Positions 11,751-62,488 of a stretch of DNA of 64,000 nt are shown here, one piece after another. How positions within the stretch are numbered: the first letter of the stretch is position 1; each line of letters opens with the position of its first letter. This DNA comes from Candidatus Zhuqueibacterota bacterium (GTDB lineage: Bacteria; Zhuqueibacterota; JdFR-76; DREG01). The translations under genes and the position numbers were made by a program. Location: assembly GCA_022566355.1 (NCBI GenBank), contig JADFJB010000001.1:234-64233 (forward strand), written 5' to 3'. The notes under the pieces were generated by a model. The model saw only the letters and a program-made list of their open reading frames with translations, had not been told where the DNA came from and ran no database searches.

Positions 11751-11774
11751 GTATAAAAAAAAATATAAAGAAGT

Positions 11775-32769: not shown

Positions 32770-32806
32770 CGCTAGCTCAATTTCATTCTGATAAACTCTT
32801 AACTCT

Positions 32807-39065: not shown

Positions 39066-39069
39066 AACT

Positions 39070-40509
39070 ATGGTAAGAAAATTATTTGTTTTACTGCTGA
39101 CACTTTTATTCATCTCATGCGCTTCGGCGCCGTCAAAACAAGATATAGAAACTGGGGTAACTGCTCCGACTAGCTGGCAATATTCTTCAACCATTGCTGC
39201 TGAAATCGATTCTGCATGGTGGACTGAATTTAACGATCCTCAACTGAACCAGGTTTTGGATGAAGCCTTCAATAAAAATTACGATCTAACCATTGCTGCT
39301 GCTAATTTTCATTCTGCAGCTGCCCAGGCAAGGATCGCCGGCGCTCCACTTTACCCACAAGCGAATCTTTCCTTTAACGGCGCCAGAAACAAACAAAATT
39401 TTATTGGATTTCCTATCCCTGGCGCCGGAGGCAACGTCTTAAGCAGCACAACGACTTCATTCGGTGTCTCGATGAATGTAAGCTGGGAGCTCGATTTATG
39501 GGGACGATTGCGATCGGATAAGGCAGCGGCTGTAGCTCAACTTCAAGCAACTCACGCTGATTTTATTGGCGCGAGGCTTTCTTTAGCTGCCCAGGCCAGC
39601 AAAAGCTGGTTTGCTGCCATTGAAGCAAAACGACAGATGGAATTATCGCAGGCTACGGCTGATAGCTGGCTCACATCTTATGAACGAGTTCAAAGACGCT
39701 ACGAAAATGGCTTGACCAGTTCCCTGGATCTTCGTTTGTCTCGAGCCAATCTGTCTATTGCAGAAGCCAACCTCAGCGCCAGAAAATCCCAGTATGAAAA
39801 TGTGTTACGGCAACTTGAAATACTCTTGCGACGATATCCTTCGGCAAGTATGGAAATAAACCGTGAACTTCCGGAAACATCAAGAGAAGTTCCAACTGGA
39901 TTGCCAGCCGACCTGGTTTCACGCCGACCTGACCTGGCGGCTGCGGAACGACGTTTAGCTGCATCTTATGCCGGCGTTTCAGGCGCTAAAGCTGCACTGC
40001 TGCCGCAAATCAGTCTTACAAGCTCCGGAGGAACTTCCAGCAATCAGCTTAACGATTTATTAAATGGAAATTTTAGTGTTTGGAGTATTGCCGGTAGTTT
40101 GTTGCAACCTATCTTTCAAGGCGGGAGATTGCGTGCGAATGTCGATCTCGCTAAAACCAAAACTGAGATTGCCCTGGCACAATACCAACGTGCCCTTCTG
40201 AATGCCTTTGCTGAGGTTGAGAATGCCCTGGCTAACGAGAAGTACTTAAATGAACGGCAGGTTGCTTTAAAAGAAGCAACGCGACAATCTACAGCGGCCC
40301 AGGCTCTGGCAGAGTCACAGTACAATCGGGGCTTAATCAATTTCGTAACCATGCTGGAAACCCAGCGAGCAGCCTATGACAATGAACGGCAATTGCTTAC
40401 CGTCCGCCGGCAGCGCCTTGATGCAAGAATCGATCTGTACCTGGCGCTGGGTGGTGGTTTTACAGTCAACAAAGACAAACAGATTCAAGATCAGGAGAAT
40501 CCGTTATGA
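39070..40509 (+). CDS. RND efflux outer-membrane lipoprotein, NodT family
   Basis: Lipobox LLFISCASAP, two TolC-like repeats, NodT-type length of 479 aa. Confidence 0.85.
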   Translation: MVRKLFVLLLTLLFISCASAPSKQDIETGVTAPTSWQYSSTIAAEIDSAWWTEFNDPQLNQVLDEAFNKNYDLTIAAANFHSAAAQARIAGAPLYPQANLSFNGARNKQNFIGFPIPGAGGNVLSSTTTSFGVSMNVSWELDLWGRLRSDKAAAVAQLQATHADFIGARLSLAAQASKSWFAAIEAKRQMELSQATADSWLTSYERVQRRYENGLTSSLDLRLSRANLSIAEANLSARKSQYENVLRQLEILLRRYPSASMEINRELPETSREVPTGLPADLVSRRPDLAAAERRLAASYAGVSGAKAALLPQISLTSSGGTSSNQLNDLLNGNFSVWSIAGSLLQPIFQGGRLRANVDLAKTKTEIALAQYQRALLNAFAEVENALANEKYLNERQVALKEATRQSTAAQALAESQYNRGLINFVTMLETQRAAYDNERQLLTVRRQRLDARIDLYLALGGGFTVNKDKQIQDQENPL

Positions 40510-41711
40510 AGGAAAAGAAGAAATTTGTTCTACCTATATTGGTGATTTTTGTTAGCATCCTGGGTGCAATCGTGATTGTTGCATCCAGACCTGAAGTTAA
40601 GCCCTTACCTCCTGAGGTCTCAAGAAAAATAATTCGAGCGCAGAAAGTGTACAAACAAAGCGTTCAAATGGTAGTCAAATCGCAAGGAACTGTAGTACCT
40701 CGAACAGAAAGTGTACTGGTTTCCCAGGCGGCAGGGCTTATCATTGCCGTCTCGCCATCATTCGTTGTAGGTGGATTCTTTGAGAAAGGAGATGTTCTGG
40801 TTTCTCTCGATCCACGCGATTATGAATTTGCCCTGACACAGGTAAAACATCAAGTTGCCCAAACCGAGTTATCTTTGGAAATTGAAGGACAGGAAGCCAA
40901 GATTGCAAAAGAAGAATGGCATCGTTTAAATGATGGCCAAGCGCCTCCGTTGGTTGCCAGGGAGCCGCAGGTGAACCAGGCTCGCGCAGCGTTGGAAGCT
41001 GCTAAGGCAGGTATGTTGCAGGCCCAGCTCAATCTTGAACGAACCCAAATTCGAGCGCCGTTTTCAGGGCGGGTACGCAATAAGCATGTAGACGTTGGCC
41101 AGTACGTTACTCCCGGTTTGGCGGTAGCTAAGATTTATGCTGTTGATTATGTAGAAGTTCGTCTCCCCATACCCGATGAAGAACTTGCTTATGTTGACAT
41201 TCCTTTGGATTTTCGTGGTGCAAAAACGAACCACAAAGGGCCAATAGTAATTCTGAAGACGCGCTTCGCAGGTGAAGAACATGAATGGCAGGGCTATATC
41301 ACCCGGATTGAAGGAGAGATCGATGCACGCAGCAGAATGATTCATGCGGTCGTCCGGGTTGAAAATCCCTATAGCAAAAAACCCAACTCAATTAGGCCTC
41401 CATTAACAGTCGGGATGTTTGTGTATGCGGAAATCGAAGGGAAATATGTAGATGATTTGTATGCGATCCCGCGTGCTGCTCTTCGAGATAATGGCCAGGT
41501 CCTGATTGTGGATGCTGATGAGCGCTTACGATTTCGCAACGTTGAGCCATTTCGTTTCGATTCTGAAATTGTATATATTCGTTCAGGGCTGGAAGACGGA
41601 GAGCAAATTTGCATTTCGACACTTCAGGCAGTCGTCGATGGTATGCCGGTTAGTGTACTAGAAGAAAAAGTTTATGTAGGTAAAGAAACAAAATTAGAGG
41701 AGACCAAATGA
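40506..41711 (+). CDS. efflux RND periplasmic adaptor subunit (AcrA/HlyD-like)
   Basis: N-terminal TM, coiled-coil hairpin and beta-barrel domains. 4-bp overlaps on both sides. Confidence 0.85.
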   Translation: MKEKKKFVLPILVIFVSILGAIVIVASRPEVKPLPPEVSRKIIRAQKVYKQSVQMVVKSQGTVVPRTESVLVSQAAGLIIAVSPSFVVGGFFEKGDVLVSLDPRDYEFALTQVKHQVAQTELSLEIEGQEAKIAKEEWHRLNDGQAPPLVAREPQVNQARAALEAAKAGMLQAQLNLERTQIRAPFSGRVRNKHVDVGQYVTPGLAVAKIYAVDYVEVRLPIPDEELAYVDIPLDFRGAKTNHKGPIVILKTRFAGEEHEWQGYITRIEGEIDARSRMIHAVVRVENPYSKKPNSIRPPLTVGMFVYAEIEGKYVDDLYAIPRAALRDNGQVLIVDADERLRFRNVEPFRFDSEIVYIRSGLEDGEQICISTLQAVVDGMPVSVLEEKVYVGKETKLEETK

Positions 41712-44700
41712 ATCGTGCCATAGAGTGGTTTGCTCATAACCGGGTAACGGCAAATCTTCTAATGATTGCCATTATTGTGGCTGGTGTTATATCTCTGTCA
41801 CAAATAAAATTGGAAGTTTTCCCGGAGTTTTCTGCAGATTTGATTAGGGTCTCGGTAGCCTACTTAGGCGCTGCTCCGGAGGAAGTGGAGGAAGGTGTCT
41901 GCGTCCGAGTGGAAGAAGCGATTCAAGACCTTGAAGGAATTAAGAAAATCACTGCAACAGCATCGGAGAATATAGGTACTGTTGTGATAGAAGTTGAAAC
42001 CGGTTATGATATTAGGAAATTGTTGGATGACATCAAATCCCGTGTAGATGCCATTACTACTTTCCCAAGGGAAACCGAAAAACCAGTGGTCCAGGAAATA
42101 CTGAACCGCCGACAGGTTATCAACGTAGCCATTTCGGGCCAGGCGGATGAGAAAAGCCTTAAATTTCTCGGGGAGCGAATCAGGGATGAAATTAGCGACT
42201 TGCCGGAGATTAGTCAAGTGGAATTAACCGCTGCCCGGCCTTATGAAATTGCCATCGAAGTATCTGAAGAAGCATTGCGCCGCTATGGACTCACTTTCGA
42301 TGAAGTGGCCCAGGCAGTTCGATTGTCTTCTTTGGATCTACCTGGTGGTTCGATTAAAACCAGTAGCGGTGAAATATCATTACGGACTAAAGGGCAGGCT
42401 TATCGCGGTCAAGAATTCGAAAATTTGATCTTGCGTACTTCAGCGGATGGAACGCGACTGAAACTGGGAGATGTTGCAACTATTGTCGATGGTTTTGCAG
42501 AAAGCGATCAATTTTCCAGGTTTAATAACGAACCTACGGTTCTGGTTCAAATTTTCAGAGTAGGAGAAGAAAATGCCCTAACAGTAGCCAATGCTGTAAA
42601 AGAGTATATCGCAGAAGCGCAATTGCGAATGCCGGAAGGAATCCACCTCACCACCTGGCAAGACGACTCGCTGCTGCTAAAAGATCGACTCAATTTACTT
42701 CTGCGTAACGGGCGCAACGGTTTTATATTGGTCTTTCTGGCTCTTGCATTATTTTTAAGATTAAGGCTGGCATGGTGGGTGACGGTAGGGATGATCATCT
42801 CGTTTTTTGGCGCATTTTGGGTGATGCCCAATTTTGATGTCTCCATCAATATGATCTCATTGTTTGCCTTCATACTGGTACTCGGTATCATCGTTGATGA
42901 CGCAATTATAGTGGGAGAAAATGTTTATACACACCTGGAACAAGGTAAAAGTAGTTTAAGAGCGGCCATTGAAGGAGCACAAGGGGTCGCAGTTCCTGTG
43001 ACCTTTGCCGTATTGACTACAGTAGCTGCATTTTCGCCTTTGCTTTCCGTTGCTGGTTTCATGGGAAAAATTATGAGAGTTATTCCCATTATTGTTATTG
43101 CTACACTGTTATTTTCCCTGGTTGAATCGTTGCTAATTTTGCCGGCCCACTTGTCTCATCTTCATCTCAAGAATAAAAAAAAACCAAGCTGGGGTTTAGC
43201 AAAATGGTGGGATAAATTTCAGGAGGGATTTGCCGTAAAATTACGCTACTTCATTAATGTACATTACCGCAATATTCTGGACCTGGCTTTGCGCTGGCGC
43301 TATCTTTCCATTTCCCTGGGTGTCGGGATGCTCATTCTTACCATTGGCCTGGTTGCCGGAGGCAGGATAAAATTTACTTTCATGCCCCAGGTTGAGGCTG
43401 ACAATGTCGTAGCCCTCTTAACCATGCCCCAGGGAACATCCGCTGATGTTACCGCCCAGGCGGTTAAGGTCCTGGAAGAAAACGCCCTAAAACTGAAAAA
43501 CGAATTTAAAGATGGAGACAGCACGCCAATTCAGCACATTCTGGCTTCGGTTGGCTCCCAACCGTTTCTTACTCGACAAATGAATCCTGGCGGTCCCAGC
43601 ACAAGTACATTTAGTGGTTCCCATCTTGGTGAAGTAAACCTCCAGTTGTTTTCCTCTGAAATCCGTGATGTAACCAGCCCGGAATTAGCGCAACGATGGC
43701 GTGAGTTAGTCGGTACTGTGCCGGATGCTGAAAAATTGATTTTCTCCTCGTCATTGTTCTCTGTGGGTGAAGCGATCAATTTTCAATTAGCGGGTGCAAA
43801 CTACGAAGAGCTCCAGCTAGCCGCGAATGAACTCAAAGCCCGGATTGGTGAATACCCCGGAGTTTTTGATATTTCAGACTCGTTTCGGGGTGGGAAAAAA
43901 GAGATCAAACTCAAAATAAAACCCGAAGCTGAAGCACTCGGACTTTCTCTTTCCGATCTGGCGCGGCAAGTGCGCCAGGCATTTTACGGTGAGGAAGTAC
44001 AGAGAATTCAACGCGGTCGTGACGATATTCGTGTCATGGTTAGATACCCGGAGAACCAGCGAAAATCTTTGGGTGATCTTGAGAATATGCGTATTCATAT
44101 ACCTGGCGGGGGAGAAGTTCCGTTCCATATCGCGGCAGAAGTCCAACAAGGCATCGGCTTTGCTTCCATCAACCGCACTGACCGCAAAAGGACCATCAAC
44201 ATCACGGCAGATGTTGACTTAAGCAAAGCAAATGCCAACGAGATTGTCGCCGACATCAGCGCAAATGTGATGCCTTATCTGCTGGAAAAATACCCGGGCT
44301 TAAGTTATTCCCTTGAGGGTGAACAATCCGAACAGCAGAAGACCCTTGCCGGCTTGGGACGAGGATTTTTGTTTGCCTTGCTGATCATATATATTTTGCT
44401 TGCCATTCCTTTTCGCTCATATTCCCAACCTTTCATCGTGATGAGCGCTATTCCGTTTGGATTGATTGGTGCAATATGGGGTCATGTGTTTATGGGATTG
44501 AATTTAACCATCCTTTCCGGATTTGGCGTGGTTGCATTAACCGGTGTAGTGGTTAATGATAGCTTGTTGATGGTTGATTTCGTCAACCGGGCAAGGGCAT
44601 CAGGACTGCCTCTTCATGAGGCCATCCGGGAGGCTGGGGGTTCTCGTTTTCGGCCGATCATGCTAACCTCATTGACCACTTTCGCCGGACTTACACCACT

Positions 44701-44893
44701 GCTCCTGGAAAGAAGCCTGCAGGCACAATTCCTGATTCCAATGGCCATTTCGCTTGCTTTTGGTGTCATGTTTGCGACTTTGATTACGCTGATATTAGTG
44801 CCTTGTATTTACCACATTCTGGAGGATGTGAAAGTAGGGTTGGCTAAGGGTTGGAGAAGAGTTCGAACTGAACCGGAATTGGTTGAGGTATGA
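41708..44893 (+). CDS. multidrug RND permease (HAE1, AcrB/AcrD/AcrF family)
   Basis: 1061 aa. MNRAIEWFAHNRVTANLLMIAIIVAGV N-terminus and 12-TM two-porter-domain organisation. Confidence 0.9.
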   Translation: MNRAIEWFAHNRVTANLLMIAIIVAGVISLSQIKLEVFPEFSADLIRVSVAYLGAAPEEVEEGVCVRVEEAIQDLEGIKKITATASENIGTVVIEVETGYDIRKLLDDIKSRVDAITTFPRETEKPVVQEILNRRQVINVAISGQADEKSLKFLGERIRDEISDLPEISQVELTAARPYEIAIEVSEEALRRYGLTFDEVAQAVRLSSLDLPGGSIKTSSGEISLRTKGQAYRGQEFENLILRTSADGTRLKLGDVATIVDGFAESDQFSRFNNEPTVLVQIFRVGEENALTVANAVKEYIAEAQLRMPEGIHLTTWQDDSLLLKDRLNLLLRNGRNGFILVFLALALFLRLRLAWWVTVGMIISFFGAFWVMPNFDVSINMISLFAFILVLGIIVDDAIIVGENVYTHLEQGKSSLRAAIEGAQGVAVPVTFAVLTTVAAFSPLLSVAGFMGKIMRVIPIIVIATLLFSLVESLLILPAHLSHLHLKNKKKPSWGLAKWWDKFQEGFAVKLRYFINVHYRNILDLALRWRYLSISLGVGMLILTIGLVAGGRIKFTFMPQVEADNVVALLTMPQGTSADVTAQAVKVLEENALKLKNEFKDGDSTPIQHILASVGSQPFLTRQMNPGGPSTSTFSGSHLGEVNLQLFSSEIRDVTSPELAQRWRELVGTVPDAEKLIFSSSLFSVGEAINFQLAGANYEELQLAANELKARIGEYPGVFDISDSFRGGKKEIKLKIKPEAEALGLSLSDLARQVRQAFYGEEVQRIQRGRDDIRVMVRYPENQRKSLGDLENMRIHIPGGGEVPFHIAAEVQQGIGFASINRTDRKRTINITADVDLSKANANEIVADISANVMPYLLEKYPGLSYSLEGEQSEQQKTLAGLGRGFLFALLIIYILLAIPFRSYSQPFIVMSAIPFGLIGAIWGHVFMGLNLTILSGFGVVALTGVVVNDSLLMVDFVNRARASGLPLHEAIREAGGSRFRPIMLTSLTTFAGLTPLLLERSLQAQFLIPMAISLAFGVMFATLITLILVPCIYHILEDVKVGLAKGWRRVRTEPELVEV

Positions 44894-52053: not shown

Positions 52054-52069
52054 TGGCATAATCCTTGCT
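52054..52069 (+). promoter_or_regulatory. sigma54 (-24/-12) type promoter upstream of REC-DUF4388 gene
   Basis: TGGCAT-aatcc-TTGCT matches TGGCAC-N5-TTGCW with correct GG-to-GC spacing. ~38 bp upstream of ATG 52107. A sigma54-dependent activator is encoded in the same cluster. Confidence 0.5.
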
Positions 52070-52106
52070 GAGCATCTCGTAAAAGATGTTTTAGATTTAG
52101 TTAATA

Positions 52107-52736
52107 GTGGATAAAAGAACAATGAATATGCCTGAACACAGAGTTCTGATTGTAGATGATGAAGAAGATTTAACCTGGAGCATCACCAAGAGCTTAAAAA
52201 GGGAAAATCGAATTTCAGAGGTAAATTCTTTCAACTCAGGTAGCGAAGCGTTAGAAATTCTACAAAATGAAAGAGTAGATCTATTGGTCACTGATCTGCG
52301 CATGCCGGGAATTAATGGTTTTGCACTTATTAAGTATATTCAAGAAAAGAAATTAAATACAAAAATCATCATTATGACAGCCTATAGATCCGAAGAAATT
52401 CTAAATAAAGTTTTAATGGATGATAAGTGTAGTTTCATAGAAAAACCATTTGAGATGAGTAGTTTGAAGCAAAAGATCTATAAAATTCTTGAGCCTGTGC
52501 CATTAAAAGTTAAGAACGATGCAAGCAGGAAAATTCTTCATCTTTTAGATACAACAACGACCATCGATGATCTTCGGGTTACTTTGGTCAGTGGGAGTAA
52601 GAAGGGTCGTTTATACATTTCCAAAGGGCAGATCTATCAGGCAGAATTAGGATATATGAATGGAAAAAATGCACTCGATGAAATGCTAAATTGGGATCAT
52701 TGTAGATTAGAAGTTGAATCTCCTCAAAACCCATAA
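52107..52736 (+). CDS. response-regulator receiver fused to DUF4388 (PATAN-like) domain
   Basis: REC motifs (VLIVDDEEDL..., DLLVTDLRMPGINGF, KIIIMTAY). C-terminal RLYISKGQIYQAELGYMNGKNALDEMLNWDHCRLEVE matches the DUF4388 pattern (G.iyhA..g...GeeA...l.W..G.F). Confidence 0.7.
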   Translation: MDKRTMNMPEHRVLIVDDEEDLTWSITKSLKRENRISEVNSFNSGSEALEILQNERVDLLVTDLRMPGINGFALIKYIQEKKLNTKIIIMTAYRSEEILNKVLMDDKCSFIEKPFEMSSLKQKIYKILEPVPLKVKNDASRKILHLLDTTTTIDDLRVTLVSGSKKGRLYISKGQIYQAELGYMNGKNALDEMLNWDHCRLEVESPQNP

Positions 52737-52840
52737 TTTTGTTGAAGAGTAGTTTGAAAACCCGATGAAAAATAATTTTAGATTTAAGGAAATCACTAAT
52801 TGTTTCCGATAAATAGAATTAATAAACTAAAAATGTTTTA

Positions 52841-53650
52841 TTGAATTCCAGGAGTAGTTGCATGGGCGAAGTTGTTTCAATTGCAAGTCAAAAAGGTGGT
52901 GTTGGTAAAACCACAACAGCGGTAAATTTGGGTGCTGCATTTGCTCATCTTAATTATAGAACATTAATAATAGATTTGGATCCGCAGGGAGGTATAGCCT
53001 CTAGTTTCGGGATGAGTCGCTATGATATAAAGGGTGGAATTCTACAACTATTCACAGAAAATATGCCTATTGAACAAACAATCCATTCTACCGAACTGAG
53101 TAATTTAGACTTAATTCCATGCAATGTTTGGTCCGATGACGATGAAAAAAGGAAACTAATCGGATCATCCGCAGAATCAAAACTGAAAGCTTGCTTACGT
53201 TCCATTAAAGAGGATTATGATTATTTTCTTATCGACTGTCCCCCAGCTTTGGGGAATCTAACTTATAATGGTTTGATTGCATCGGATTCGATAATTGTTC
53301 CAATTCAATGTGAATATTATGCTTTAAAGGCTTTAGGGCGTTTTTTAAAATTAACACGGACAATCAAAGAAGAATATAATCCATCATTGAAGTACCGTGG
53401 ATTCTTACTAACCATGTATGATTCGAGGAATAATTTAACCAAACGGGTTGTCGAAAAAGTAAAATATACCCTAAAGGGGATGGTGTTTGAAACGGTTATT
53501 CCACGAAATGTCAGGCTGGCAGAAGTGCCTTATTATGGCCGGCCCGTTATGCTTTTTGATCAAAAGTGTAAAGGTAGTCAAAGTTATATGCAGTTGGCGG
53601 AGGAGATGGTTGCTTCAAATCAAATTCAAATCAAGAAAGAAGTTGCCTAA
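52841..53650 (+). CDS. ParA/Soj/MinD-family P-loop ATPase (orphan; no parB adjacent)
   Basis: Deviant Walker A IASQKGGVGKTTTAVNLGAAFA (likely start at Met 52862). IIDLDPQG, and DYFLIDCPPALG Walker B region. Confidence 0.85.
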   Translation: MNSRSSCMGEVVSIASQKGGVGKTTTAVNLGAAFAHLNYRTLIIDLDPQGGIASSFGMSRYDIKGGILQLFTENMPIEQTIHSTELSNLDLIPCNVWSDDDEKRKLIGSSAESKLKACLRSIKEDYDYFLIDCPPALGNLTYNGLIASDSIIVPIQCEYYALKALGRFLKLTRTIKEEYNPSLKYRGFLLTMYDSRNNLTKRVVEKVKYTLKGMVFETVIPRNVRLAEVPYYGRPVMLFDQKCKGSQSYMQLAEEMVASNQIQIKKEVA

Positions 53651-53653
53651 AAA

Positions 53654-54355
53654 TTGAAAGGTAAGCGAATGGTCATACGATTTCTTAGACGTCTCACGGT
53701 TTTGGTCGTGGTGGCGGTAGCGGTGGCGTTGGGAATCAGTGCAATTGGGTTCACTTTACACCGAATTGAAACATTTCATTTTTTTACGTTTAACAACAGA
53801 ATGGAGGGTTCAATAAAAGAAATTGAAGGCTCTATAAAAGTAGATCAACAACGACAAAATGTAACAATTAGAATTATTAGTATCATTGATAAATATAATC
53901 CTACTATGTCAACTGAGTTAAAGCAAGTAATAGCAGATTTGATTTATAAAATGGAAGTTAAATATGATAATCTGAACGTAGATCTAATCTGTGCAACAAT
54001 TACGCATGAAAGTGCCCGGACATGGGATCCAAAAGTTATTTCACCGGTAGGTGCGATGGGTTTAATGCAAATAATGCCTAAGACCGGCCAATTTCTAGTT
54101 GAATATGAAAATTTAAAATGGACTTCAGCAGAAGAGATTCTCAATAATCCAATTTATAATGTTCGTATGGGATGTCGATATCTTTCGATGTTAATTGATT
54201 TTTATGGCATCGAAGGAGCTCTAGCTGCTTATAATGGTGGAGAAAAACGAGCTGCAATGTGGCTTGCTAACAATAAAGCTGATGGGATTTTATGGGAAGA
54301 AACTCAGAATTATGTACCTGCTGTAATGAAATTATACCGTAAATTTCAGAATTAG
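53654..54355 (+). CDS. lytic transglycosylase (SLT domain) with N-terminal membrane anchor
   Basis: N-terminal TM. SLT catalytic region ITHESARTWDPKVISPVGAMGLMQIMPKTG ... AYNGGEKRA. Confidence 0.8.
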   Translation: MKGKRMVIRFLRRLTVLVVVAVAVALGISAIGFTLHRIETFHFFTFNNRMEGSIKEIEGSIKVDQQRQNVTIRIISIIDKYNPTMSTELKQVIADLIYKMEVKYDNLNVDLICATITHESARTWDPKVISPVGAMGLMQIMPKTGQFLVEYENLKWTSAEEILNNPIYNVRMGCRYLSMLIDFYGIEGALAAYNGGEKRAAMWLANNKADGILWEETQNYVPAVMKLYRKFQN

Positions 54356-54366
54356 GAGATACGTAT

Positions 54367-57267
54367 ATGTCGACAATTCAGACTTCTCCTGAACAAACTA
54401 ATGAAGCAGGTTTCAACGAAACTTTATTGGAGCGCTTTTTCAACCCAAAAAGCTATTTCCTCCAAAAATTTATGACTTCTCTTAATAAGAGTGATTCTTC
54501 TGTTCCTGAGACAGCGCATGCCGTTACTGTTGGTTTAATTATGGATGAAATCATCAATTCGGAAAATAAACTAAGATTATTTAAACAGCTAGATCAGTTT
54601 GATGAATTTCGCAGGTATCATGAACAATTAGATTACGGTATCGATTGCTTAAAGAATTCCAGGTTAACTACCCAGCAGATGATGGACATCGTAGGAGCCC
54701 TTGGGCAATCTCTTTCATCCACACTTCTGGATCTCTTATCTAAAGAGTCTACCAAATCCATGCTACTTGATATATTCGGATTAGAATCAACTAGTAATGG
54801 CAATGGTAATGATCATTCTTCAATGTCTAAAGATTCATTAAATGATGAGATAAAGAAAATCGACGATGTCCTCTCTCTTGAATCATTGTCTTTTAATGAT
54901 GAAGATGAAATTCCTCAACAAAGTGAATTAAGCTCGGAAACTGAAATTGTATTTTCTTCTAAACCAAAACCTGAATTTCCTGTTCTAAAAGTAGACGAGA
55001 AAGAAACAGGAGAATTAGGTGATGAAACAGAGAATTCACTTTTCCAAGATTCACAACCAGAAACACCCGTAACTAAAATTGAGGAACAAGGACCAGAGGA
55101 ATTAAGCTCGGAAACTGAAATTGTATTTTCTTCTAAACCAAAACCTGAATTTCCTGTTCTAAAGGGAGACGAGAAAGAAACAGGAGAATTAGGTGATGAA
55201 ACAGAGAATTCACTGTTCCAAGATTCACAACCAGAAACACCCGTAACTAAAATTGATGAGAAAGATTCGGTGAAATTAATCGATGAAATTGAAAAATCGA
55301 TTTTTCATGAGTTAAAATCCGAACCGCTGGTTGATAAAGCAGAAGAATCAAAGTCGGAAAAATTAACAATTGAATCTGATAATCTGTCATTCACCGAATC
55401 AAAGATTGAGCCACACGAACCTCATGTGGAACTGAAAACTGAGAATTTAAAACCGGTAAATGAACTATTTAATCCTCAAGAATCTGACGGATTCCCTTTA
55501 CATTCCGATCTTAACGAACCAACTGGATTTAAAGAAAAGCCAAAAGATCTAAATGGTAACGAGATTGTTCAACAATTTGCCAAGTTGGATGAGATTGAAA
55601 GTATCGAACCCAATCCAACCGATTTACAACCTTGGTCCTATTTCCAGGATGATGTAAGTAATAAATTAAGAAGCATACGGAAAAATATTGATAATTTCTG
55701 CCTGAATGCAAACGATTGGAAATCATTTAAAAAAATCAAAAATGATTTTAAAGATTTGCGCGATGGGGCGATGATCCAAGGTGATGAAGGAATTGAAGCG
55801 CTCTCATTCAAGGTATTGCTGTTATTTGAAACTGCATACATGAAAGGAATAGAAAAACGATCAATTCTTAAGAACATTCTCAACGACGCCTGGGAAGCCG
55901 TTGCTGTTGTCAACAGCTCCGGAAAAGGCAGCGAGAGATTGGATATCGTTAGATTGGTAGCACATCAAATTGATAAACAAAGAGAAGTTTACCCGGAAGA
56001 ATTGTTCGTCCAAAATGGCAAAACAGAAAAAGCTGCTCCAATAATCGAGAAAGTTGATGTCAAAGAAAATTCAAATAATTTCTCCAAAAAGACAAACGAA
56101 GAACCAATTGTTATCCTGAATAAGCCTGAACTTGAAGAAATCTACGAGTTCAATGAACCCGAGCCTTCCATAAATGAAACAGAAATACACGATGAACATG
56201 TCGACACGGTAGAATTTAAATCAATTCGTGAATCCGAGCTTCTTACCGAACTTATGGAGGAACAACTAGAGGCTGAAGAAGATTCTGTAAATCGATCCCA
56301 ATTATCTGAAAATCTAAGTCTTAAAGAACATCCGGATTCGAACTTAGATAGACAGATTGATTCTTTAAGCGATGTATCTAAAACAACAGGGGAATCAGAT
56401 TTAATGGAATCAAGCGATTTACCATTGACAGAGCCAGAACCTTCTTCTTCTAAACAGCCACAACCTGTTGCAATAAATTTGCCAGGAGAAGCTGATGAAG
56501 ATTTGCTCGAAATATTGGAAGATATTAAAAATGAAGAATCGCAGCTAAACTTAGTTGAACCGGCGAATAGTGAATCTCAAAGTGAGCAAGTAGAAGATCA
56601 AAATGAATCCAACTTTGATTTTTACATAGAAAAGTTGCAGAAGGATTATGAAGCCAATCAAACTAAACATCCGGAAAATAGCAAAAATGATCATAATGGC
56701 TCTTCACAACCTGACCCAGGAAACGGTGGGATTAAAGGGAACATAAAGTCGGGTGACACAGGGGATGGCTACGATTTTGTTTCGGAATCTGATATGTATT
56801 TTTCTTTTGCCCGAAAGTCTCTTCAAAACTTGATGAGAAATCCTTCTGATTCACAATCACTGGAAGACATTGAGCTGGCATTTTACTCATTAAAAACTTT
56901 AGCCAAAAAACTTGGTTATAAAACCATTTATCAGTTGATGGCTTATGCGGAAAATTTGATAAGTAACAAAAAGGAAAATGAATCTTCCATGACCGTAACC
57001 CAGGTTAATGGTCTATACACGGCAGTTTCCGAAATTGAACATGCTTGCAGAGAGAAAAGATTAAACGAGCCGGAAAGGCAATCCTGGATTAATCAGCAAA
57101 TAAAAATCATTCAAGGATGGAGTGAAATTCCAGCCTCTTTAGAGAAAGAGGAAATCGATGTTTCACCTGTTCAACTTGAGAAGAAAGAAAATCCATCAGA
57201 TGATCCGTTAGATTTTTTATTATTTGATGACACTTCAAAATTTTTTAAGCAGTTGTTAAGAGAGTAA
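54367..57267 (+). CDS. 966-aa highly acidic, low-complexity repeat protein, hypothetical
   Basis: Glu/Asp/Ser-rich, with a perfect-ish 52-aa internal repeat. Two helical segments (LRDGAMIQGDEGIEALSFKVLLLFE; LEDIELAFYSLKTLAKKLGYKTIYQLMAYAENLI) resemble an Hpt-like four-helix module lacking the His. Confidence 0.6.
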   Translation: MSTIQTSPEQTNEAGFNETLLERFFNPKSYFLQKFMTSLNKSDSSVPETAHAVTVGLIMDEIINSENKLRLFKQLDQFDEFRRYHEQLDYGIDCLKNSRLTTQQMMDIVGALGQSLSSTLLDLLSKESTKSMLLDIFGLESTSNGNGNDHSSMSKDSLNDEIKKIDDVLSLESLSFNDEDEIPQQSELSSETEIVFSSKPKPEFPVLKVDEKETGELGDETENSLFQDSQPETPVTKIEEQGPEELSSETEIVFSSKPKPEFPVLKGDEKETGELGDETENSLFQDSQPETPVTKIDEKDSVKLIDEIEKSIFHELKSEPLVDKAEESKSEKLTIESDNLSFTESKIEPHEPHVELKTENLKPVNELFNPQESDGFPLHSDLNEPTGFKEKPKDLNGNEIVQQFAKLDEIESIEPNPTDLQPWSYFQDDVSNKLRSIRKNIDNFCLNANDWKSFKKIKNDFKDLRDGAMIQGDEGIEALSFKVLLLFETAYMKGIEKRSILKNILNDAWEAVAVVNSSGKGSERLDIVRLVAHQIDKQREVYPEELFVQNGKTEKAAPIIEKVDVKENSNNFSKKTNEEPIVILNKPELEEIYEFNEPEPSINETEIHDEHVDTVEFKSIRESELLTELMEEQLEAEEDSVNRSQLSENLSLKEHPDSNLDRQIDSLSDVSKTTGESDLMESSDLPLTEPEPSSSKQPQPVAINLPGEADEDLLEILEDIKNEESQLNLVEPANSESQSEQVEDQNESNFDFYIEKLQKDYEANQTKHPENSKNDHNGSSQPDPGNGGIKGNIKSGDTGDGYDFVSESDMYFSFARKSLQNLMRNPSDSQSLEDIELAFYSLKTLAKKLGYKTIYQLMAYAENLISNKKENESSMTVTQVNGLYTAVSEIEHACREKRLNEPERQSWINQQIKIIQGWSEIPASLEKEEIDVSPVQLEKKENPSDDPLDFLLFDDTSKFFKQLLRE
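54925..55253. repeat. ~156-bp tandem-like duplication (2 copies, 18-bp spacer, ~98% identical) inside acidic protein gene
   Basis: gaattaagctcggaaactgaaattgtattttcttctaaaccaaaacctgaatttcctgttctaaa...ccagaaacacccgtaactaaaatt occurs at 54925-55080 and 55099-55253. Confidence 0.85.
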
Positions 57268-57328
57268 ACATTTTTAATAATAAATCACTTTCAAGGATCT
57301 ATGAAATCAAATATCCAATAGGAATAAT

Positions 57329-59092
57329 ATGAAAGAGGACAAGAAAATTACATTTCAAAGTGATACTGACAAAGAGTTAGAAGCCCTGCTTAAATCGCAT
57401 AAAACGGTGATCAAGGTCATTGGGACGGGGGGCGCTGGGAATAATACCATTTCCAGGCTATTAGAAGCAGGTATTGATGATGTTCAAACCTATGCCATTA
57501 ATACCGATGCCCAGGATCTCCTTTTTACAAATGCTGATCATAAAATCCTGATTGGTAGAGAAATTACTAGTGGCCTGGGTGCAGGGAGTGATCCTAAAGT
57601 GGGTGAAGATTCGGCGGTTGAAAATGAGAATGAAATAAAAGCAATTGTAAGTGATGCGGATTTAGTTTTTGTCACGTGTGGACTGGGTGGCGGTACTGGA
57701 ACCGGTTCTGCACCGATTATAGCCGAATTGGCAAAAGAAGCAGGTGCATTAACCATATCTATAACAACATTGCCATTTTCAGAAGAAGGGGTAATGAGAA
57801 GAAATAATGCTGAGTATGGGCTGGAGCGGTTAAAAAAGAATTCCGATACCCTTATTGTAATTGAAAATGACAAATTGTTGGAGATTGATCCTGATGTGTC
57901 TTTGGATGAGGCGTTTCGTGTAGCTGACGATGTTTTAGTAAACGCTGTCAAAGGGATAACTGAATTGGTTACGCAAAAGGGCTTGGTTAATTTGGATTTT
58001 GCAGATATTCGAACAATAATGAAAGACGGTGGAACTGCATTAATCGGGATGGCTGAAAGTGAGTCACCTGATAGGGCCATAGATGCTGTTGAAAAAGCAG
58101 TAGCAAATCCCTTGATTGATCTAAAAATTGACGGTGCAAAAAGTGCATTGCTCAATATAACCGGCGGCAGGGATATGACAATCAGAGATGCAAAAACAGC
58201 CATGCATACTTTGGCGCGAAAATTAGATAAATCTGCAAAGATCATCTGGGGGGCTCGTATAAGTCCGGACCTTGATAAAAAAGTTTACGTGATGGTTTTA
58301 GCCACAGGGTTGAGTAATGATATGATTCCTTCTAATGTAGAATTGGTTTCCTATGAGAGTAACTCTAAAAAATTGGTCAAAAAAACATCTTACGGAACAA
58401 AAACCTCTTCCCAGCTCCTTGATGAAGAAAACGATAATGAAAGTTCATCTACGAAGACCGAAGCGCAATCTGTTGATGAAGAAAAACTAAACAGCTCTAA
58501 AAAGATTTTTTCTGAAATTATGGAAGAGGAGTCTGATGCAGATTTAAAGATTCTTTCTGATGTTATAATGGAACTTCAAGAAAACATCACTGACAGTGAT
58601 CAATGGGAAGAACTAAGGAAAGCAAGTTCTTCACTAGCTGGAACAGCACAAATGTTTGATTTCGATGATATTTCCAAGACGATGAACTTGGCCGAAGATT
58701 TCTTGGCCAGTATTATTTATAAAGATTTATTCTTTGAACAAGTTCTCGAATTGTTTACGGATATCCCAAACCATCTGCAATTGATGATCCGGAATGAGGC
58801 GGATTCCATGAAATGGGCACAAGAATTTAAAGTTAAAGCTGATTTATTAGCGAAATCAATTCGCAGCAATGATATTTCTACAAAAGAAGATTTCGTAAAA
58901 GAGTTAGAGAAGATTAACAAAGATATGGATAAGCATTTGGTTGAATCCGGTTATGATACAGAATCGGGTCCAGCTTCAACAGGGGACTCAAAAATGGATA
59001 GTGAAAAAACCTCGAAAGATGTTTCGAATGTAAATGATGCAATGCAATATGTGAAAAGCTTATTGCGCAAAGACGAAAATCCGTCAAAATAA
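57329..59092 (+). CDS. ftsZ: FtsZ-family tubulin-like GTPase with ~250-aa acidic C-terminal extension (FtsZ paralog or non-dcw FtsZ)
   Basis: Canonical FtsZ core: IKVIGTGGAGNNTISRL, AINTDAQDL, LGAGSDPKVG, DLVFVTCGLGGGTGTGSAPIIA, LIVIENDKLL, NLDFADIRTIMKDGGTALIGMAES, ALLNITGG. C-terminus lacks the usual conserved FtsA/ZipA-binding peptide and carries ELRKASSSLAGTAQMFDFDDISKTMNLAEDFL. No ftsA/ftsQ/mur genes nearby. Confidence 0.85.
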   Translation: MKEDKKITFQSDTDKELEALLKSHKTVIKVIGTGGAGNNTISRLLEAGIDDVQTYAINTDAQDLLFTNADHKILIGREITSGLGAGSDPKVGEDSAVENENEIKAIVSDADLVFVTCGLGGGTGTGSAPIIAELAKEAGALTISITTLPFSEEGVMRRNNAEYGLERLKKNSDTLIVIENDKLLEIDPDVSLDEAFRVADDVLVNAVKGITELVTQKGLVNLDFADIRTIMKDGGTALIGMAESESPDRAIDAVEKAVANPLIDLKIDGAKSALLNITGGRDMTIRDAKTAMHTLARKLDKSAKIIWGARISPDLDKKVYVMVLATGLSNDMIPSNVELVSYESNSKKLVKKTSYGTKTSSQLLDEENDNESSSTKTEAQSVDEEKLNSSKKIFSEIMEEESDADLKILSDVIMELQENITDSDQWEELRKASSSLAGTAQMFDFDDISKTMNLAEDFLASIIYKDLFFEQVLELFTDIPNHLQLMIRNEADSMKWAQEFKVKADLLAKSIRSNDISTKEDFVKELEKINKDMDKHLVESGYDTESGPASTGDSKMDSEKTSKDVSNVNDAMQYVKSLLRKDENPSK

Positions 59093-59094
59093 TA

Positions 59095-59859
59095 TTGAGT
59101 TTTATCATGTCTGAGAAAAAAGAAACCGTAATTTCGGAACCAGCTTTGGAATTTGTTTCCTACTATCAAAAAGAAATGCGTCGAAACATAGCAGATATCC
59201 GTAAGTTGATTTCTGATGTTGAGAACCAGGAGGATACCGAAAATTTACTTCAAGAAATAAAAAAAAGTGGACTGGCCATGAGTGATCTGGCAATGGTCTA
59301 CGGTTTTGAGAGTGAAGAAGTAATTGGACGAACGATCGTAATGATGGTGGATACGCACGATAAAGAAAATGATTCGGAAAAACTAATCTCAAATTTAATA
59401 GATTCTGTAAAAGCTGCGGAAGCCGTATTACTGGTCAGCGAGAAAGAAAAGGAAAAAGATGGGAATAAAATAATCAAATACAATGCCGAAGAAGATTCTG
59501 TAACGATTAGCAGCGAAGAAGTTGACGAAGGGGATGAGAATGGGCTTATATTTGATATTAAAGAAGATGAGGGATTGATCTCTCTCATAAAAGGAGAATA
59601 CTCGATAACAACGTCGACAATCAAATCTACAAATTTTGAAGATGGAGTTGCTGAGAATTCATTTTTGCCGAAAGATCAAAATCGATCTTTGAAATTTGAT
59701 ATTCCTGAAGAAGATGATTCCAGCTCTGAAATTCAGAGTTCTTTTACTGAGCTGGACGATGTTTTGGAGATTAATTTTGTCGAAAAGCCGGTAGTTACCC
59801 AAAAAGAACAAAAGAGTATTTTTAAGAAAATTACCGACTTATTTAGTTCAAAAAATTAA
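59095..59859 (+). CDS. acidic hypothetical protein
   Basis: 254 aa, starts 3 bp after the ftsZ-like stop. Contains LLQEIKKSGLAMSDLAMVYGFESEEVIGRTIVMMVD, similar to the motif in the FtsZ C-terminal extension and the 966-aa protein. Confidence 0.5.
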   Translation: MSFIMSEKKETVISEPALEFVSYYQKEMRRNIADIRKLISDVENQEDTENLLQEIKKSGLAMSDLAMVYGFESEEVIGRTIVMMVDTHDKENDSEKLISNLIDSVKAAEAVLLVSEKEKEKDGNKIIKYNAEEDSVTISSEEVDEGDENGLIFDIKEDEGLISLIKGEYSITTSTIKSTNFEDGVAENSFLPKDQNRSLKFDIPEEDDSSSEIQSSFTELDDVLEINFVEKPVVTQKEQKSIFKKITDLFSSKN

Positions 59860-60004
59860 GAAGCCAGTAATTTATATCCTGCTTATTTGCCAACCTTATC
59901 CTTTCTTTTTGTCTCTTATTTCAAATTTATTCAAAACTTGCCGAATAATAAACTAAGGCTTCCGTTGGTTGCCATAAAACTAGTTCTGTACTGGAAAGAG
60001 GAAA

Positions 60005-60769
60005 GTGAAATCTAATTTAGAAAAACAGGATCTGGTTGTTGAAGATGAAATTCCGGGTCAAATAAAGAATAACCAAAAGCATTTTTTGCTGTTCAAAGAA
60101 AAAATGGCCAGTCTGGAACAACTTGCCGCAGGGATTGCTCACGAATTACGAAATCCTCTAAGCATCATCGGGACTTCCGTTTATTATCTCAACAAAGTTC
60201 TGGAGAATCATCCGGAAGTGCGTGTCCACGAACATTTAACTATCATGCAGGTCGAAATCATACGATCACAACGAATCATTAACAATTTGCTGGATTTTTC
60301 CCAGAGGACAAGTACGGAACGTGAAAGTGCCGACGTTAACAAAATTATTCGGCAAACCCTCTCATTGATAGAGAAAAATCTATTGTACCAGGAAATAGAA
60401 TTAGAATCAAATTTGGAGCATGGTCCTCTCTGTTTTATCAATGTTAGTGAGATAAAACAAGTTCTACTCAATATATTTATGAATGCTATGGAGGCTATGC
60501 CAAGCGGTGGATGTTTGACAATCCACACTTATGTCAAAGAAAAAAATTACTTAGCTGTTGATATCACCGACACAGGGATTGGCATCGAACAGGAAGATTT
60601 GAAAAAAATTTTTGAACCGTTTTTTTCATCAAAATTAGATCAAAATGGAATTGGTCTGGGGTTATCACTGGTAGACGCAAGCATTTCCAGGAATCACGGC
60701 GAAATACATATTACATCAGAAATAGGAAAAGGTACAAAGGTATCCATAGTGTTACCTATTTCATCTTAA
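60005..60769 (+). CDS. cytoplasmic sensor histidine kinase (HisKA + HATPase_c, no sensor/TM domain)
   Basis: H-box LAAGIAHELRNPLSII. N box NIFMNAMEA. G1/G2 DTGIGIE...GIGLGLSLV. Confidence 0.85.
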   Translation: MKSNLEKQDLVVEDEIPGQIKNNQKHFLLFKEKMASLEQLAAGIAHELRNPLSIIGTSVYYLNKVLENHPEVRVHEHLTIMQVEIIRSQRIINNLLDFSQRTSTERESADVNKIIRQTLSLIEKNLLYQEIELESNLEHGPLCFINVSEIKQVLLNIFMNAMEAMPSGGCLTIHTYVKEKNYLAVDITDTGIGIEQEDLKKIFEPFFSSKLDQNGIGLGLSLVDASISRNHGEIHITSEIGKGTKVSIVLPISS

Positions 60770-60776
60770 ATTAAAT

Positions 60777-62123
60777 ATGAAATATCAAAAAGAAAAAATA
60801 TTAATCGTTGATGATGAACCGAATTTTTTGCGGGCATTACGCGATACCCTTGAGTTGGAATCATTTGAGATTTTCACAAGCCTTTCTGCCCTGGAAGCTC
60901 TACCGATTTTACATGAAAATAGAATTGATGCTGTTATTACTGATTTACGTATGCCCAAAATGAGCGGAATTGAACTGCTGCGTGAAATAAAACAAAAATG
61001 GCCTGGCGTAATCGTATTCATATTAACCGGTTACGGTTCTATTCAACATGCTGTCGACTGCATGAAGCTTGGTGCGGAAAATTATATTTTGAAGCCGATC
61101 AACATCATGGATCTAATAAGCAATTTAAAAACAGCGCTGATGAAATCTTCTGAGACAGAGAAGAAAAACGCAGGCAACACTGCTGATATGGACTTTCCAT
61201 TCATTGGCCAGTCAAGTGCCACTATAGAGACAAGAGAATTGGTAAAGAAAATTGCGCATTCCGAACTTTCAGTAGTAATCAAAGGCGAAAGCGGAACAGG
61301 TAAAGAGCTGATCGCAAATGCTATTTATCAGTACAGTAATCGTAAGAATAAGCCATTTCTTAAAATTAATTGTGCCGCCCTGCCACTTCATTTATTAGAA
61401 AGTGAATTATTTGGCTATGAGCCAGGTGCTTTTACGGATGCAAAAAAACTAAAGCGTGGAAAGCTGGAAATCGCTCATCAAGGCACTTTGTTTTTAGATG
61501 AGATTGGCGATATGCCAATCGAAATGCAGGCAAAATTACTTCGTGTTTTGGAAGAGCACGTTGTGGAAAGGCTTGGTGGTAATCAATTGATTCAAACGGA
61601 CTTTCGTCTGATTTCAGCGACCAATCAAAACCTGGAATTGTGTATCAAAAATGGTGAATTTCGCAATGACCTTTATTTCCGATTAAATACAATGCAAATC
61701 AATTTAAAGCCTTTACGTGAGATTAGAGAAGATATTCAATTGATCAGTAATTATTTTGTCCAACGATATTCAATTGAGCAGAAAATTAATCAGCCATCAA
61801 TACATTCAAAAACGATGGAAATTTTTTTATCTTACCATTGGCCTGGAAATGTGCGTGAGCTGAGGAATGTGATCCAAAGATCGGTGGTACTATGCGATGG
61901 TAAAGATATTCTTCCGGAACACCTTCCTGATCACATGCATTGGCATGAGTATAATGACGTTGAAATTGACTCGACATCCCTTTTGTCTCTTGAAGATATG
62001 GAAAGGGAGCATATTCAAAAAGTTATGCAAATCGCTTCCGGTAACAAAAATCGAACCGCGGCCCTCTTAAAAATCCATCGTGATACACTTTATAGAAAAT
62101 TGCGGAAATACGAATTGGATTAA
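60777..62123 (+). CDS. sigma54-dependent response regulator (NtrC family: REC + AAA+ + Fis HTH)
   Basis: REC (ILIVDDEPNFL..DAVITDLRMPKMSG). AAA+ GESGTGKE and GAFTDA (GAFTGA variant). HWPGNVREL. C-terminal HTH TAALLKIHRDTLYRKLRKY. Confidence 0.9.
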   Translation: MKYQKEKILIVDDEPNFLRALRDTLELESFEIFTSLSALEALPILHENRIDAVITDLRMPKMSGIELLREIKQKWPGVIVFILTGYGSIQHAVDCMKLGAENYILKPINIMDLISNLKTALMKSSETEKKNAGNTADMDFPFIGQSSATIETRELVKKIAHSELSVVIKGESGTGKELIANAIYQYSNRKNKPFLKINCAALPLHLLESELFGYEPGAFTDAKKLKRGKLEIAHQGTLFLDEIGDMPIEMQAKLLRVLEEHVVERLGGNQLIQTDFRLISATNQNLELCIKNGEFRNDLYFRLNTMQINLKPLREIREDIQLISNYFVQRYSIEQKINQPSIHSKTMEIFLSYHWPGNVRELRNVIQRSVVLCDGKDILPEHLPDHMHWHEYNDVEIDSTSLLSLEDMEREHIQKVMQIASGNKNRTAALLKIHRDTLYRKLRKYELD

Positions 62124-62404: not shown

Positions 62405-62421
62405 TTTGGAACAAGACTTGC
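62405..62421 (+). promoter_or_regulatory. sigma54-type promoter upstream of wza-like gene
   Basis: tTGGAAC-aagac-TTGCT has GG/GC spacing identical to the consensus. ~68 bp upstream of ATG 62489. Confidence 0.45.
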
Positions 62422-62488
62422 TAAAATAGTTTCGAAACGAATTACGGTAAATCTTCAACTAGAACTTTAATAGGGAAGATAGAAAATT

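Follow-up and report, generated by a model that had tools for sequence, protein, structure and literature searches.

In Myxococcus xanthus, the division site is positioned by PomXYZ. PatA of Anabaena, a PATAN-REC protein (REC, receiver domain), binds division proteins and destabilises the divisome (PMC7380572), and paralogues of bacterial FtsZ have been proposed to tune division (bioRxiv 10.1101/2025.09.29.679267). Archaeal FtsZ1 carries a C-terminal motif of the GID type (PMC8178401), functions independently of SepF and is able to attach to the membrane alone (PMC12583498). Phylogenetic studies of FtsZ found no notable transfer between archaea and bacteria (PMC9871819) and a clear separation of the two domains (PMC8178401). 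P1 domains, on the other side, dock onto receiver domains (PDB 2lp4 and 3kyi). Here we analyse an ftsZ-containing gene module on contig JADFJB010000001.1 of a Candidatus Zhuqueibacterota bacterium, within a stretch of 64 kb (the window) whose positions serve as coordinates throughout. Our favoured reading, to which we give a probability of about 0.55, is that the module is a second self-contained FtsZ machine for specialised, spatially controlled septation or envelope constriction, apart from housekeeping FtsA/FtsZ division.

The region 52054–62123 holds eight genes, all on the + strand and separated by intergenic gaps of 104, 3, 11, 61, 2, 145 and 7 nt. With domains assigned by Pfam and NCBIfam, they encode in order a REC-DUF4388 response regulator, a Soj-like ParA, a lytic transglycosylase (SLT), a 966-aa acidic protein, a 587-aa FtsZ, a 254-aa acidic protein, a histidine kinase and an NtrC-type activator. 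The tight same-strand array described in a previous, sequence-only reading of this DNA was thus recovered gene by gene. That reading had also placed the FtsZ outside the dcw (division and cell wall) gene cluster, and rightly so: no ftsA, ftsQ, mur or other dcw gene was found in the 64-kb window or within 10 kb at 13 related loci, and the remainder of the window is occupied by RND (resistance-nodulation-division) efflux pumps, a copper ATPase, Tex and similar genes.

The FtsZ (57329..59092, + strand) consists of an archaeal FtsZ1-like core, a linker, a pseudo-P1 domain, a second linker and a C-terminal helix. It matched TIGR00065 with 411.2 bits against a cutoff of 295.2, Pfam Tubulin with E 5e-46 and FtsZ_C with E 2e-28, and its AlphaFold2 (AF2) model had a mean predicted local distance difference test score (pLDDT) of 83.9. 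The GTPase core covers residues 14–343 (57368..58357, + strand), with an intact GGGTGTG signature and the T7 loop NLDFAD. Among 118 members of the family, hereafter FtsZ-P1, both the signature GGGTG(T/S)G (G118–G126) and the T7 loop N.DFAD (N221–D226) were invariant. Because every GTP-binding and T7 residue is kept, the core should, judging from its sequence, still be competent to polymerise.

The sequence-only reading had called this core canonical, which proved wrong: bit scores, identities and a neighbour-joining tree showed it to be of the archaeal FtsZ1 type. In a search of the PDB, FtsZ1 of M. jannaschii scored 366 bits versus 286 for the best bacterial entry, with other bacterial species at 239–276. 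Foldseek analysis of the AlphaFold model gave 54% identity to the FtsZ1 proteins of M. jannaschii and Odinarchaeota and 42–46% to bacterial FtsZs of at least five phyla. Over a 337-column core alignment, mean identity was 65% within the family, 56% between the family and archaea, 43% between the family and bacteria, and 45% between archaea and bacteria. The family was monophyletic in 100 of 100 bootstraps of the tree; archaea were monophyletic to its exclusion in only four of 100, so that the family nests among archaeal sequences. A genome scan with the family peptide patterns NTDAQDLL and F[VI]TCGLGGG, the reach of which ends short of canonical FtsZ, returned about a dozen bacterial family members and then only archaeal FtsZs (DPANN, Methanosarcinales and Thermococci) with core identities of 52–61%. 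The N-terminal DKEL helix is common to the window FtsZ and MjFtsZ1. In the archaeal relatives the core is followed by a 15-aa tail ending ELGIEFVD, and neither a P1-like protein nor a close ParA was found beside their ftsZ genes. By these measures the core is FtsZ1-like of the archaeal kind, and lateral transfer most likely brought it into bacteria.

Several family FtsZs carry amphipathic-looking Lys/Arg-rich N-terminal extensions before the DKEL helix (MQSIIKSAM..., MKSIVDRGV..., MEKIIKESL...), which are reminiscent of a ParA-stimulating peptide or of the N-terminal helix with which Odinarchaeota FtsZ1 binds membranes. A 380-aa FtsZ encoded on DATGWN010000088.1 (L063), which is labelled Acidobacteriota, clustered inside the DPANN archaeal clade; the contig is probably archaeal and mis-binned, and not a case of another transfer.

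What follows the core has no counterpart in the short archaeal tails. A 120-residue block was present in all 118 FtsZ tails examined, and its profile matched the CheA P1 domains of E. coli, Salmonella and Thermotoga in the PDB over their full length (E 4.5e-9 to 2e-7). Pfam Hpt (PF01627) was matched by 21 of 24 family members, the best with E 2e-7, and the window's own copy reached 19–23 bits against a cutoff of 24.6. In the window the block forms a CheA-P1-like pseudo-Hpt helical bundle (residues 387–540; 58487..58948, + strand), which AlphaFold predicts with pLDDT >90 and with disordered linkers on both sides. The tail was modelled separately for Foldseek, as the full-length model returned FtsZ cores only; its top PDB matches were all CheA P1 domains with template-modelling (TM) scores of 0.68–0.78 (1i5n 0.76, 1tqg 0.78), including the P1–CheY complexes 2lp4 and 3kyi. 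The position aligned with CheA His48 was S, T, N or A, and never H, in 118 of 118 tails; in the window it is Ser. A single-sequence search of 1.84e9 representative proteins with the tail gave 26 weak or fragmentary matches. The P1-like segment was also matched in 23 separate stretches of a 4157-aa protein (P0141), a giant repeat protein of this helix pair.

The tail closes with a conserved amphipathic C-terminal helix, NVNDAMQYVKSLLRK (59024..59068, + strand), seen in the alignments and modelled by AF2 as helical over residues 566–580. Its family consensus is S.V.DAVKYV..LL, the window tail ending ...NVNDAMQYVKSLLRKDENPSK, and its hydrophobic moment of 0.7–0.87 lies at or above the 95th percentile of controls. 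Neither the bacterial DIPxFLR peptide, which binds FtsA, ZipA and SepF, nor the archaeal GID/ELGIEF peptide was found in the family alignments of the tail. The isoelectric point (pI) was 4.61 for the FtsZ and 4.54 for its tail. Thus the earlier description of the tail as acidic and devoid of the usual C-terminal peptide was correct, but incomplete, as the tail ends in a conserved amphipathic helix of its own.

The pseudo-P1 domain recurs in the two acidic proteins encoded on either side of ftsZ, neither of which matched any Pfam or NCBIfam family. The 966-aa protein (54367..57267, + strand) is scaffold-like, with a helical N-terminal domain, acidic repeats, two pseudo-P1 domains and an LPGE.DEEL motif. 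Compared by hhalign with the FtsZ-tail profile, its pseudo-P1 domain 1 (residues 424–534; 55636..55968, + strand) gave 95.9% probability with E 6.3e-9, and domain 2 (residues 804–919; 56776..57123, + strand) 95.7–97.2% with E 9e-9 to 4e-11, and E 9.5e-6 by hmmsearch. Domain 2 has a conserved Tyr at the phospho-His position (YSLK motif), the scaffold copies overall being Tyr or variable there. The N-terminal domain is conserved, had no PDB match and is not P1-like. Positional orthologues of this protein were found in all module loci, and a search of 5.8e9 proteins gave seven homologues. A tandem repeat of 174 bp × 1.9 copies, 98% identical, lies inside the gene (54925..55256, + strand; Tandem Repeats Finder). 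An apparent length polymorphism of the gene, with 665-aa calls in L001 and L002, was rejected as an assembly artefact, there being 100-N scaffold gaps at the tandem repeat.

The 254-aa protein (59095..59859, + strand; called by gene callers as 250 aa from 59107) has an N-terminal pseudo-P1 domain, an acidic linker and a basic-hydrophobic C-terminus. Its pseudo-P1 domain (residues 21–121; 59155..59457, + strand) aligned with the FtsZ-tail profile at 95.5% and E 1.4e-8, and orthologues were matched by hmmsearch with E down to 3.7e-9, the longer ones containing two P1 copies; the residue at the phospho-His position is Q, T or L. A small-protein positional orthologue follows ftsZ in all module loci, and the protein is fast-evolving, with 12 matches in 5.8e9 proteins. 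Its C-terminal peptide, KSIFKKITDLFSSKN (59812..59856, + strand), resembles MinD/FtsA-type ends and is a candidate membrane-targeting helix, a role we put forward purely as a hypothesis; about eight of 12 orthologues have basic-hydrophobic C-termini, for example GLFHKIGRLFGGK, LLRRITGFFGFKGKK and KVRRLLGI. The pI values of the 966-aa and 254-aa proteins were 4.43 and 4.37, so that the acidity ascribed earlier to these two proteins and the FtsZ tail was borne out.

Across the loci, a hidden Markov model (HMM) of the tail block matched only the FtsZ, large and small protein families, giving four or five dead P1 domains per module: one in FtsZ, two in the large protein and one or two in the small protein. 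The His-less Hpt-like motif which had been noticed in the three acidic proteins is therefore, on profile and structural grounds, a genuine CheA-P1-type domain homology. Compositional coincidence was considered as a source of the motif and rejected, given profile E-values of 1e-8 to 1e-11 and an HMM restricted to three gene families.

The module is not peculiar to one genome. An identical FtsZ was found on at least 22 independent contigs, including GCA_022571655.1 (candidate division KSB1 bacterium; KSB1 is now named Ca. Zhuqueibacterota). The best 120 FtsZ homologues stem from KSB1, Calditrichota and loosely labelled metagenome-assembled genomes (MAGs), and all are 509–677 aa long except P0030 (410 aa); nearly all are built like the window FtsZ. 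We then compared the neighbourhoods of 13 divergent family loci with enough flanking sequence, which included a 1-Mb Calditrichaeota contig and contigs of 339 kb and 666 kb. In 11 of the 13, from KSB1, Calditrichota and relatives, a six-gene core that includes ftsZ was kept, in the order REC-DUF4388, ParA, (extra REC), SLT, large protein, FtsZ and small protein. Thus the gene neighbourhood is conserved, and the view that the module contains its own regulators also held, since core, sigma54 promoter and activator recur across loci. In L007, L009, L011, L017, L018, L021 and L022 the stretch directly upstream of the module holds an NtrC-type activator and one or two kinases; the activator is downstream in the window and L013, and none lies within 10 kb in L012. 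The module, an operon under a sigma54 switch, is conserved in KSB1 (Zhuqueibacterota), Calditrichota and related FCB (Fibrobacterota–Chlorobiota–Bacteroidota) bacteria. A search of viral contigs gave no relative. In the literature searched there was no description of such an FtsZ module, of a bacterial clade of archaeal-type FtsZ or of an FtsZ–Hpt fusion, and the supplements of the Caldithrix and Zhuqueibacterota papers held no fts entries.

The switch itself was read from the sequence as a sigma54-type promoter, TGGCATAATCCTTGCT (GG-N10-GC; 52054..52069, + strand), located 37 nt before the first gene and corresponding to TGGCAT-N5-TTGCT. In at least eight of the 11 module loci (the window, L007, L009, L011, L012, L013, L017 and L018), the REC-DUF4388 gene has the element TGGCAT-N5-TTGC[AT] 37–57 nt upstream, against a background of 0.065 hits per kb per strand. 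With the element kept at the matching position in at least eight loci and an NtrC-type activator adjacent, the promoter proposed from the sequence was confirmed. Further sigma54-type elements lie just upstream of SLT in L009 (7235–7250) and L013 (6861–6876), which suggests an internal second promoter within these modules. Another sigma54-like element, TGGAACAAGACTTGCT, is found in the window at 62407–62422, 67 nt upstream of a Poly_export (Wza-like) gene at 62489; a single activator may control the FtsZ module as well as the exopolysaccharide cluster downstream.

The first gene encodes a response regulator with REC and a short DUF4388/PATAN domain (52107..52736, + strand; longest open reading frame 209 aa, called by gene callers from 52128 as 202 aa). 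Its REC domain (Pfam E 8.7e-27) has the complete phospho-acceptor set, that is, the acid pocket DD, the phospho-Asp, Thr and Lys. PF14332 (DUF4388) was significant in six of nine orthologues (E 3e-8 to 6e-15). In the window protein DUF4388 falls below Pfam detection, and its C-terminus aligned with the orthologues by hhalign at 98% and E 3e-13; the REC-DUF4388 assignment is thus secured through the orthologues and hhalign, not by Pfam on the window copy itself. The histidine kinase (60005..60769, + strand) is soluble, with HisKA and HATPase_c domains by Pfam and no sensor domain; in other loci PAS/HAMP kinases stand beside the activator in its place. It is called as 254 aa in the window and others and as 210 aa in L005 and L006 (10686–11318), possibly owing to a frameshift or start-site difference at the 3′ end. 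The NtrC-type sigma54 activator (60777..62123, + strand) has REC, AAA+ and Fis-type helix-turn-helix domains (Pfam Sigma54_activat E 2.6e-68; HTH_8) and most closely resembles AtoC, NtrC and PEP-CTERM-box regulators.

Between the response regulator and the large acidic protein lie the genes for an ATPase and a wall enzyme. The first is a Soj/ParA-type ATPase (52841..53650, + strand; Pfam AAA_31 E 4e-51; CbiA) with the deviant Walker A motif KGGVGKT including its signature lysine (SQKGGVGKTT). In the PDB it best matched 8ray, a 'ParA family protein', with 240 bits; the Soj proteins of H. pylori and T. thermophilus came next with 160–185 bits, and MinD and McdA scored far below Soj. No ParB-like domain was detected in any module protein in the Pfam and NCBIfam scan, in agreement with the initial description of an orphan ParA, and the gene is present in 10 of 11 module loci. 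The second is a lytic transglycosylase (53654..54355, + strand) with an SLT domain (Pfam E 2.3e-20) and an N-terminal hydrophobic anchor visible in the translation, LTVLVVVAVAVALGISAIGF; it had weak NCBIfam matches to flagellar and type III secretion system (T3SS) transglycosylases. The SLT gene is likewise present in 10 of 11 module loci; in L007 an extra REC stands there instead. Extra single-domain receiver genes were found between parA and SLT in L007 (7053–7469), L011 (6659–7063) and L018 (6690–7085), and these receivers are further candidate partners of the pseudo-P1 domains.

We next considered whether the module FtsZ is a second copy. In a published KEGG Orthology (KO) table of 44 KSB1 MAGs (PMC9012183, supplement 7), 27 carry two copies of ftsZ (K03531), 16 carry one and one has none, and K03590 (ftsA), K03589 (ftsQ) and K03588 (ftsW) are mostly single-copy; in KSB1 clade III, 10 of 12 MAGs have one ftsZ. 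The double ftsZ passes without comment by the authors. That the module FtsZ is a paralogue, as originally claimed, is thus supported by the 27 of 44 KSB1 MAGs with two ftsZ genes alongside ftsA, ftsQ and ftsW. Taken with the missing FtsA-binding peptide and the sigma54 promoter, the table makes it very probable that the module FtsZ is an additional copy beside the canonical divisome.

From these results a working scheme can be outlined for the second FtsZ machine that we favour. A signal would act through the neighbouring kinase and the NtrC-type activator to fire the sigma54 promoter; since such a promoter together with its activator implies conditional expression, the module would be made only under certain conditions. 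The large scaffold and the small protein would both connect to the FtsZ filaments, and the basic-hydrophobic C-terminus of the small protein may anchor the filaments to the membrane. Because P1 domains normally bind receiver domains, the pseudo-P1 domains may serve as docking surfaces for receivers, and possibly for each other or for the FtsZ C-terminal helix. REC-DUF4388 and the extra single RECs would then bind pseudo-P1 according to their phosphorylation state, gating assembly without phosphotransfer; that PatA binds and destabilises the divisome provides a precedent for REC-DUF4388 as an assembly regulator (PMC7380572). The Soj-like ParA would place the assembly relative to the nucleoid, and the membrane-anchored SLT would open peptidoglycan locally. 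A machine independent of FtsA would fit well with archaeal FtsZ1, which works without SepF and binds the membrane on its own (PMC12583498). A more specific version of this scheme, which is conceivable but which we consider less likely than not, is that an ancestor of the KSB1/Calditrichota type captured an archaeal FtsZ1 once and turned it into an autonomous, signal-gated second cytokinetic ring, with REC docking on the dead P1 domains of filament, scaffold and tether.

Several observations weigh against the second-machine reading. The composition of the module varies, with SLT lacking in L007, REC-DUF4388 in L020 and a nearby activator in L012, and two FtsZ-P1 genes of the family (L024 and L027) stand in unrelated contexts. 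The hydrophobic moment of the small-protein C-terminus (0.35–0.72) was not above internal controls (mean 0.53, 95th percentile 0.80), and the ParA is so Soj-like that it may have a role in chromosome handling. The tree is a neighbour-joining tree, rooted on E. coli and B. subtilis as its sole bacterial outgroups and without FtsZ2. The two-copy evidence comes from other KSB1 MAGs, the window's assembly being outside the table, and KO counts are silent on copy type. Finally, all steps of the mechanism beyond polymerisation of FtsZ are read from genes and sequences. As to the two genes outside the module, the one in L024 (9035–11368, 777 aa) is inside a glycosyltransferase/heparinase cluster, and the one in L027 (9947–12082, 711 aa), from Ca. 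Coneutiohabitans thermophilus (Zhuqueibacterota), is beside a gene for a cohesin-dockerin protein.

It could be argued that the filaments, scaffold and ParA have nothing to do with division and organise or position a machine of the envelope, for example one for exopolysaccharide export, or else a polar or shape-determining structure, with SLT opening the wall for it. The module abuts Wza/Wzc-type export genes in the window and L013, a sigma54-like site precedes the Poly_export gene, and the L024 FtsZ-P1 gene lies inside a glycosyltransferase cluster. SLT enzymes often serve trans-envelope machines, in line with the weak flagellar and T3SS matches in NCBIfam, and FtsZ relatives such as CetZ control shape, not division. 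However, the exopolysaccharide neighbourhood is not conserved, being absent in L007, L009, L011 and L012, and the core is that of a typical FtsZ rather than of a divergent FtsZ-like protein. We therefore regard a non-division role as unlikely, although it keeps an appreciable share of our belief. The full retention of the GTPase and polymerisation residues also bears on the idea that the induced module makes no ring of its own and interferes with, or tunes, the canonical Z-ring. Destabilisation of the divisome by PatA (PMC7380572), the proposal of FtsZ paralogues as tuners (bioRxiv 10.1101/2025.09.29.679267) and conditional expression from the sigma54 promoter would all suit such a modulator, but a scaffold, a candidate tether, a ParA and a hydrolase exceed what an inhibitor needs, which makes this role distinctly improbable.

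Another account would be an ordinary division gene out of place, that is, the sole ftsZ of the genome, which left a fragmented dcw cluster and has housekeeping regulators as neighbours. It would explain the score far above the TIGR00065 cutoff, the vertical conservation of the module, its position next to the housekeeping genes guaB, rpsT and fusA in L007, L009 and L011, and the single ftsZ in 10 of 12 KSB1 clade III MAGs. It does not sit well with an archaeal-type core without FtsA-binding peptide in a group whose MAGs encode ftsA, ftsQ and mostly two ftsZ genes, nor with the conditional expression implied by the sigma54 promoter, and an archaeal-type FtsZ as a bacterial division gene is not reported in PMC9871819 or PMC8178401; we consider it very unlikely. 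To an artefact of chimeric assembly, mis-binning or low-complexity coincidence we give almost no credence. Some scan matches do come from mislabelled bins (L063, and family members labelled Cytophagia and Deferribacteres), but the identical protein is present on at least 22 independent contigs, bacterial genes lie on both sides (sigma54 activator, SLT, RND/OEP pumps, elongation factor G and rpsT) in contigs of up to 1 Mb, and the family is monophyletic and diverse. An assembly chimera in particular was rejected, because many independent contigs show the archaeal-type core joined in frame with the P1 tail between bacterial flanks.

Outside the module, the left two-thirds of the window resembles a metal and drug efflux island. 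Positions 3565–22011 and 38418–44893 contain three operons for RND efflux (OEP, HlyD and AcrB types), a TetR regulator belonging to one of them, and the same stretches also hold a copper P-type ATPase and HMBD-containing adaptor proteins. Between them, at 30941–34894, there are two PCP_red (protochlorophyllide-reductase 57-kD C-terminal) proteins, one of which is fused to tandem Usp domains; they adjoin an Mrp/NUBPL-type P-loop ATPase, an unusual combination.

A monophyletic archaeal-type FtsZ clade in at least two bacterial phyla would, if true, be a clear exception to the reported archaeal/bacterial split (PMC9871819, PMC8178401). It would also show the domestication of a foreign tubulin homologue, in which the archaeal tail was swapped for a signalling-derived docking domain, matching domains were placed on new partners, and a bacterial ParA, a receiver protein, a wall hydrolase and a sigma54 switch were recruited. 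Were a receiver domain to act on FtsZ directly, by way of a pseudo-Hpt domain, two-component signalling would gain a new route to the cytoskeleton, and the docking reading, if correct, would give a cytoskeleton that works alongside the normal bacterial divisome a protein-recognition code derived from a phosphorelay. The module gives a testable handle on division or differentiation in poorly known, mostly uncultured sediment and hot-spring bacteria.

Among known systems, bacterial FtsZ paralogues, such as FtsZm of magnetotactic bacteria and the truncated FtsZ of Hyphomicrobiales, share with the module FtsZ the status of a second ftsZ outside dcw with a specialised role (bioRxiv 10.1101/2025.09.29.679267). 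However, these are duplicates of bacterial genes and usually truncated, whereas the module FtsZ would be an archaeal xenologue and is extended. Similarly, PatA, whose contacts with division proteins were established by experiment (PMC7380572), combines a PATAN/DUF4388 domain with a receiver domain, but the order is reversed with respect to the REC-then-DUF4388 protein of the module, which is in addition encoded in an operon with FtsZ; the PatA partners ZipN and SepF were not seen in the module. The pseudo-P1 domains have the fold of CheA P1/Hpt domains and sequence homology to them over about 100 residues, and differ in having no phospho-acceptor His, no P4 kinase domain in cis and, in one case, a fusion to a tubulin homologue. 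Ser/Thr-substituted 'Spt/Tpt' Hpt-type domains are found in Pseudomonas ChpA.

The resemblance to PomXYZ is a functional analogy only: both systems pair an orphan ParA-like ATPase with co-encoded large scaffold proteins and have a functional tie to FtsZ. The module ParA is, in contrast, much closer to chromosomal Soj, and its operon includes the FtsZ itself, which belongs to the archaeal type and has a domain in common with the scaffolds; the module further adds a response regulator, a sigma54 control circuit and SLT. Archaeal FtsZ1 (MJ0370, PDB 1FSZ/1W5A; Odinarchaeota, PDB 9V7V) is the closest relative of the core, with 54% identity, the best PDB matches in both sequence and structure, and the shared DKEL helix and motifs GGAGNN, NTDAQDL and FVTCGLGGGTGTG; neither protein has a SepF-type tail interaction motif. 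The module differs in its bacterial host, in the replacement of the 15-aa ELGI(E/D)F tail by about 250 aa with pseudo-P1 and a new helix, and in its sigma54/ParA/REC/SLT operon, the archaeal gene being located amid translation genes. Taken together, tail and context set this FtsZ apart from the bacterial and the archaeal division types alike, and the module would be best described as an FtsZ-based cytoskeletal system positioned by a ParA-type ATPase.

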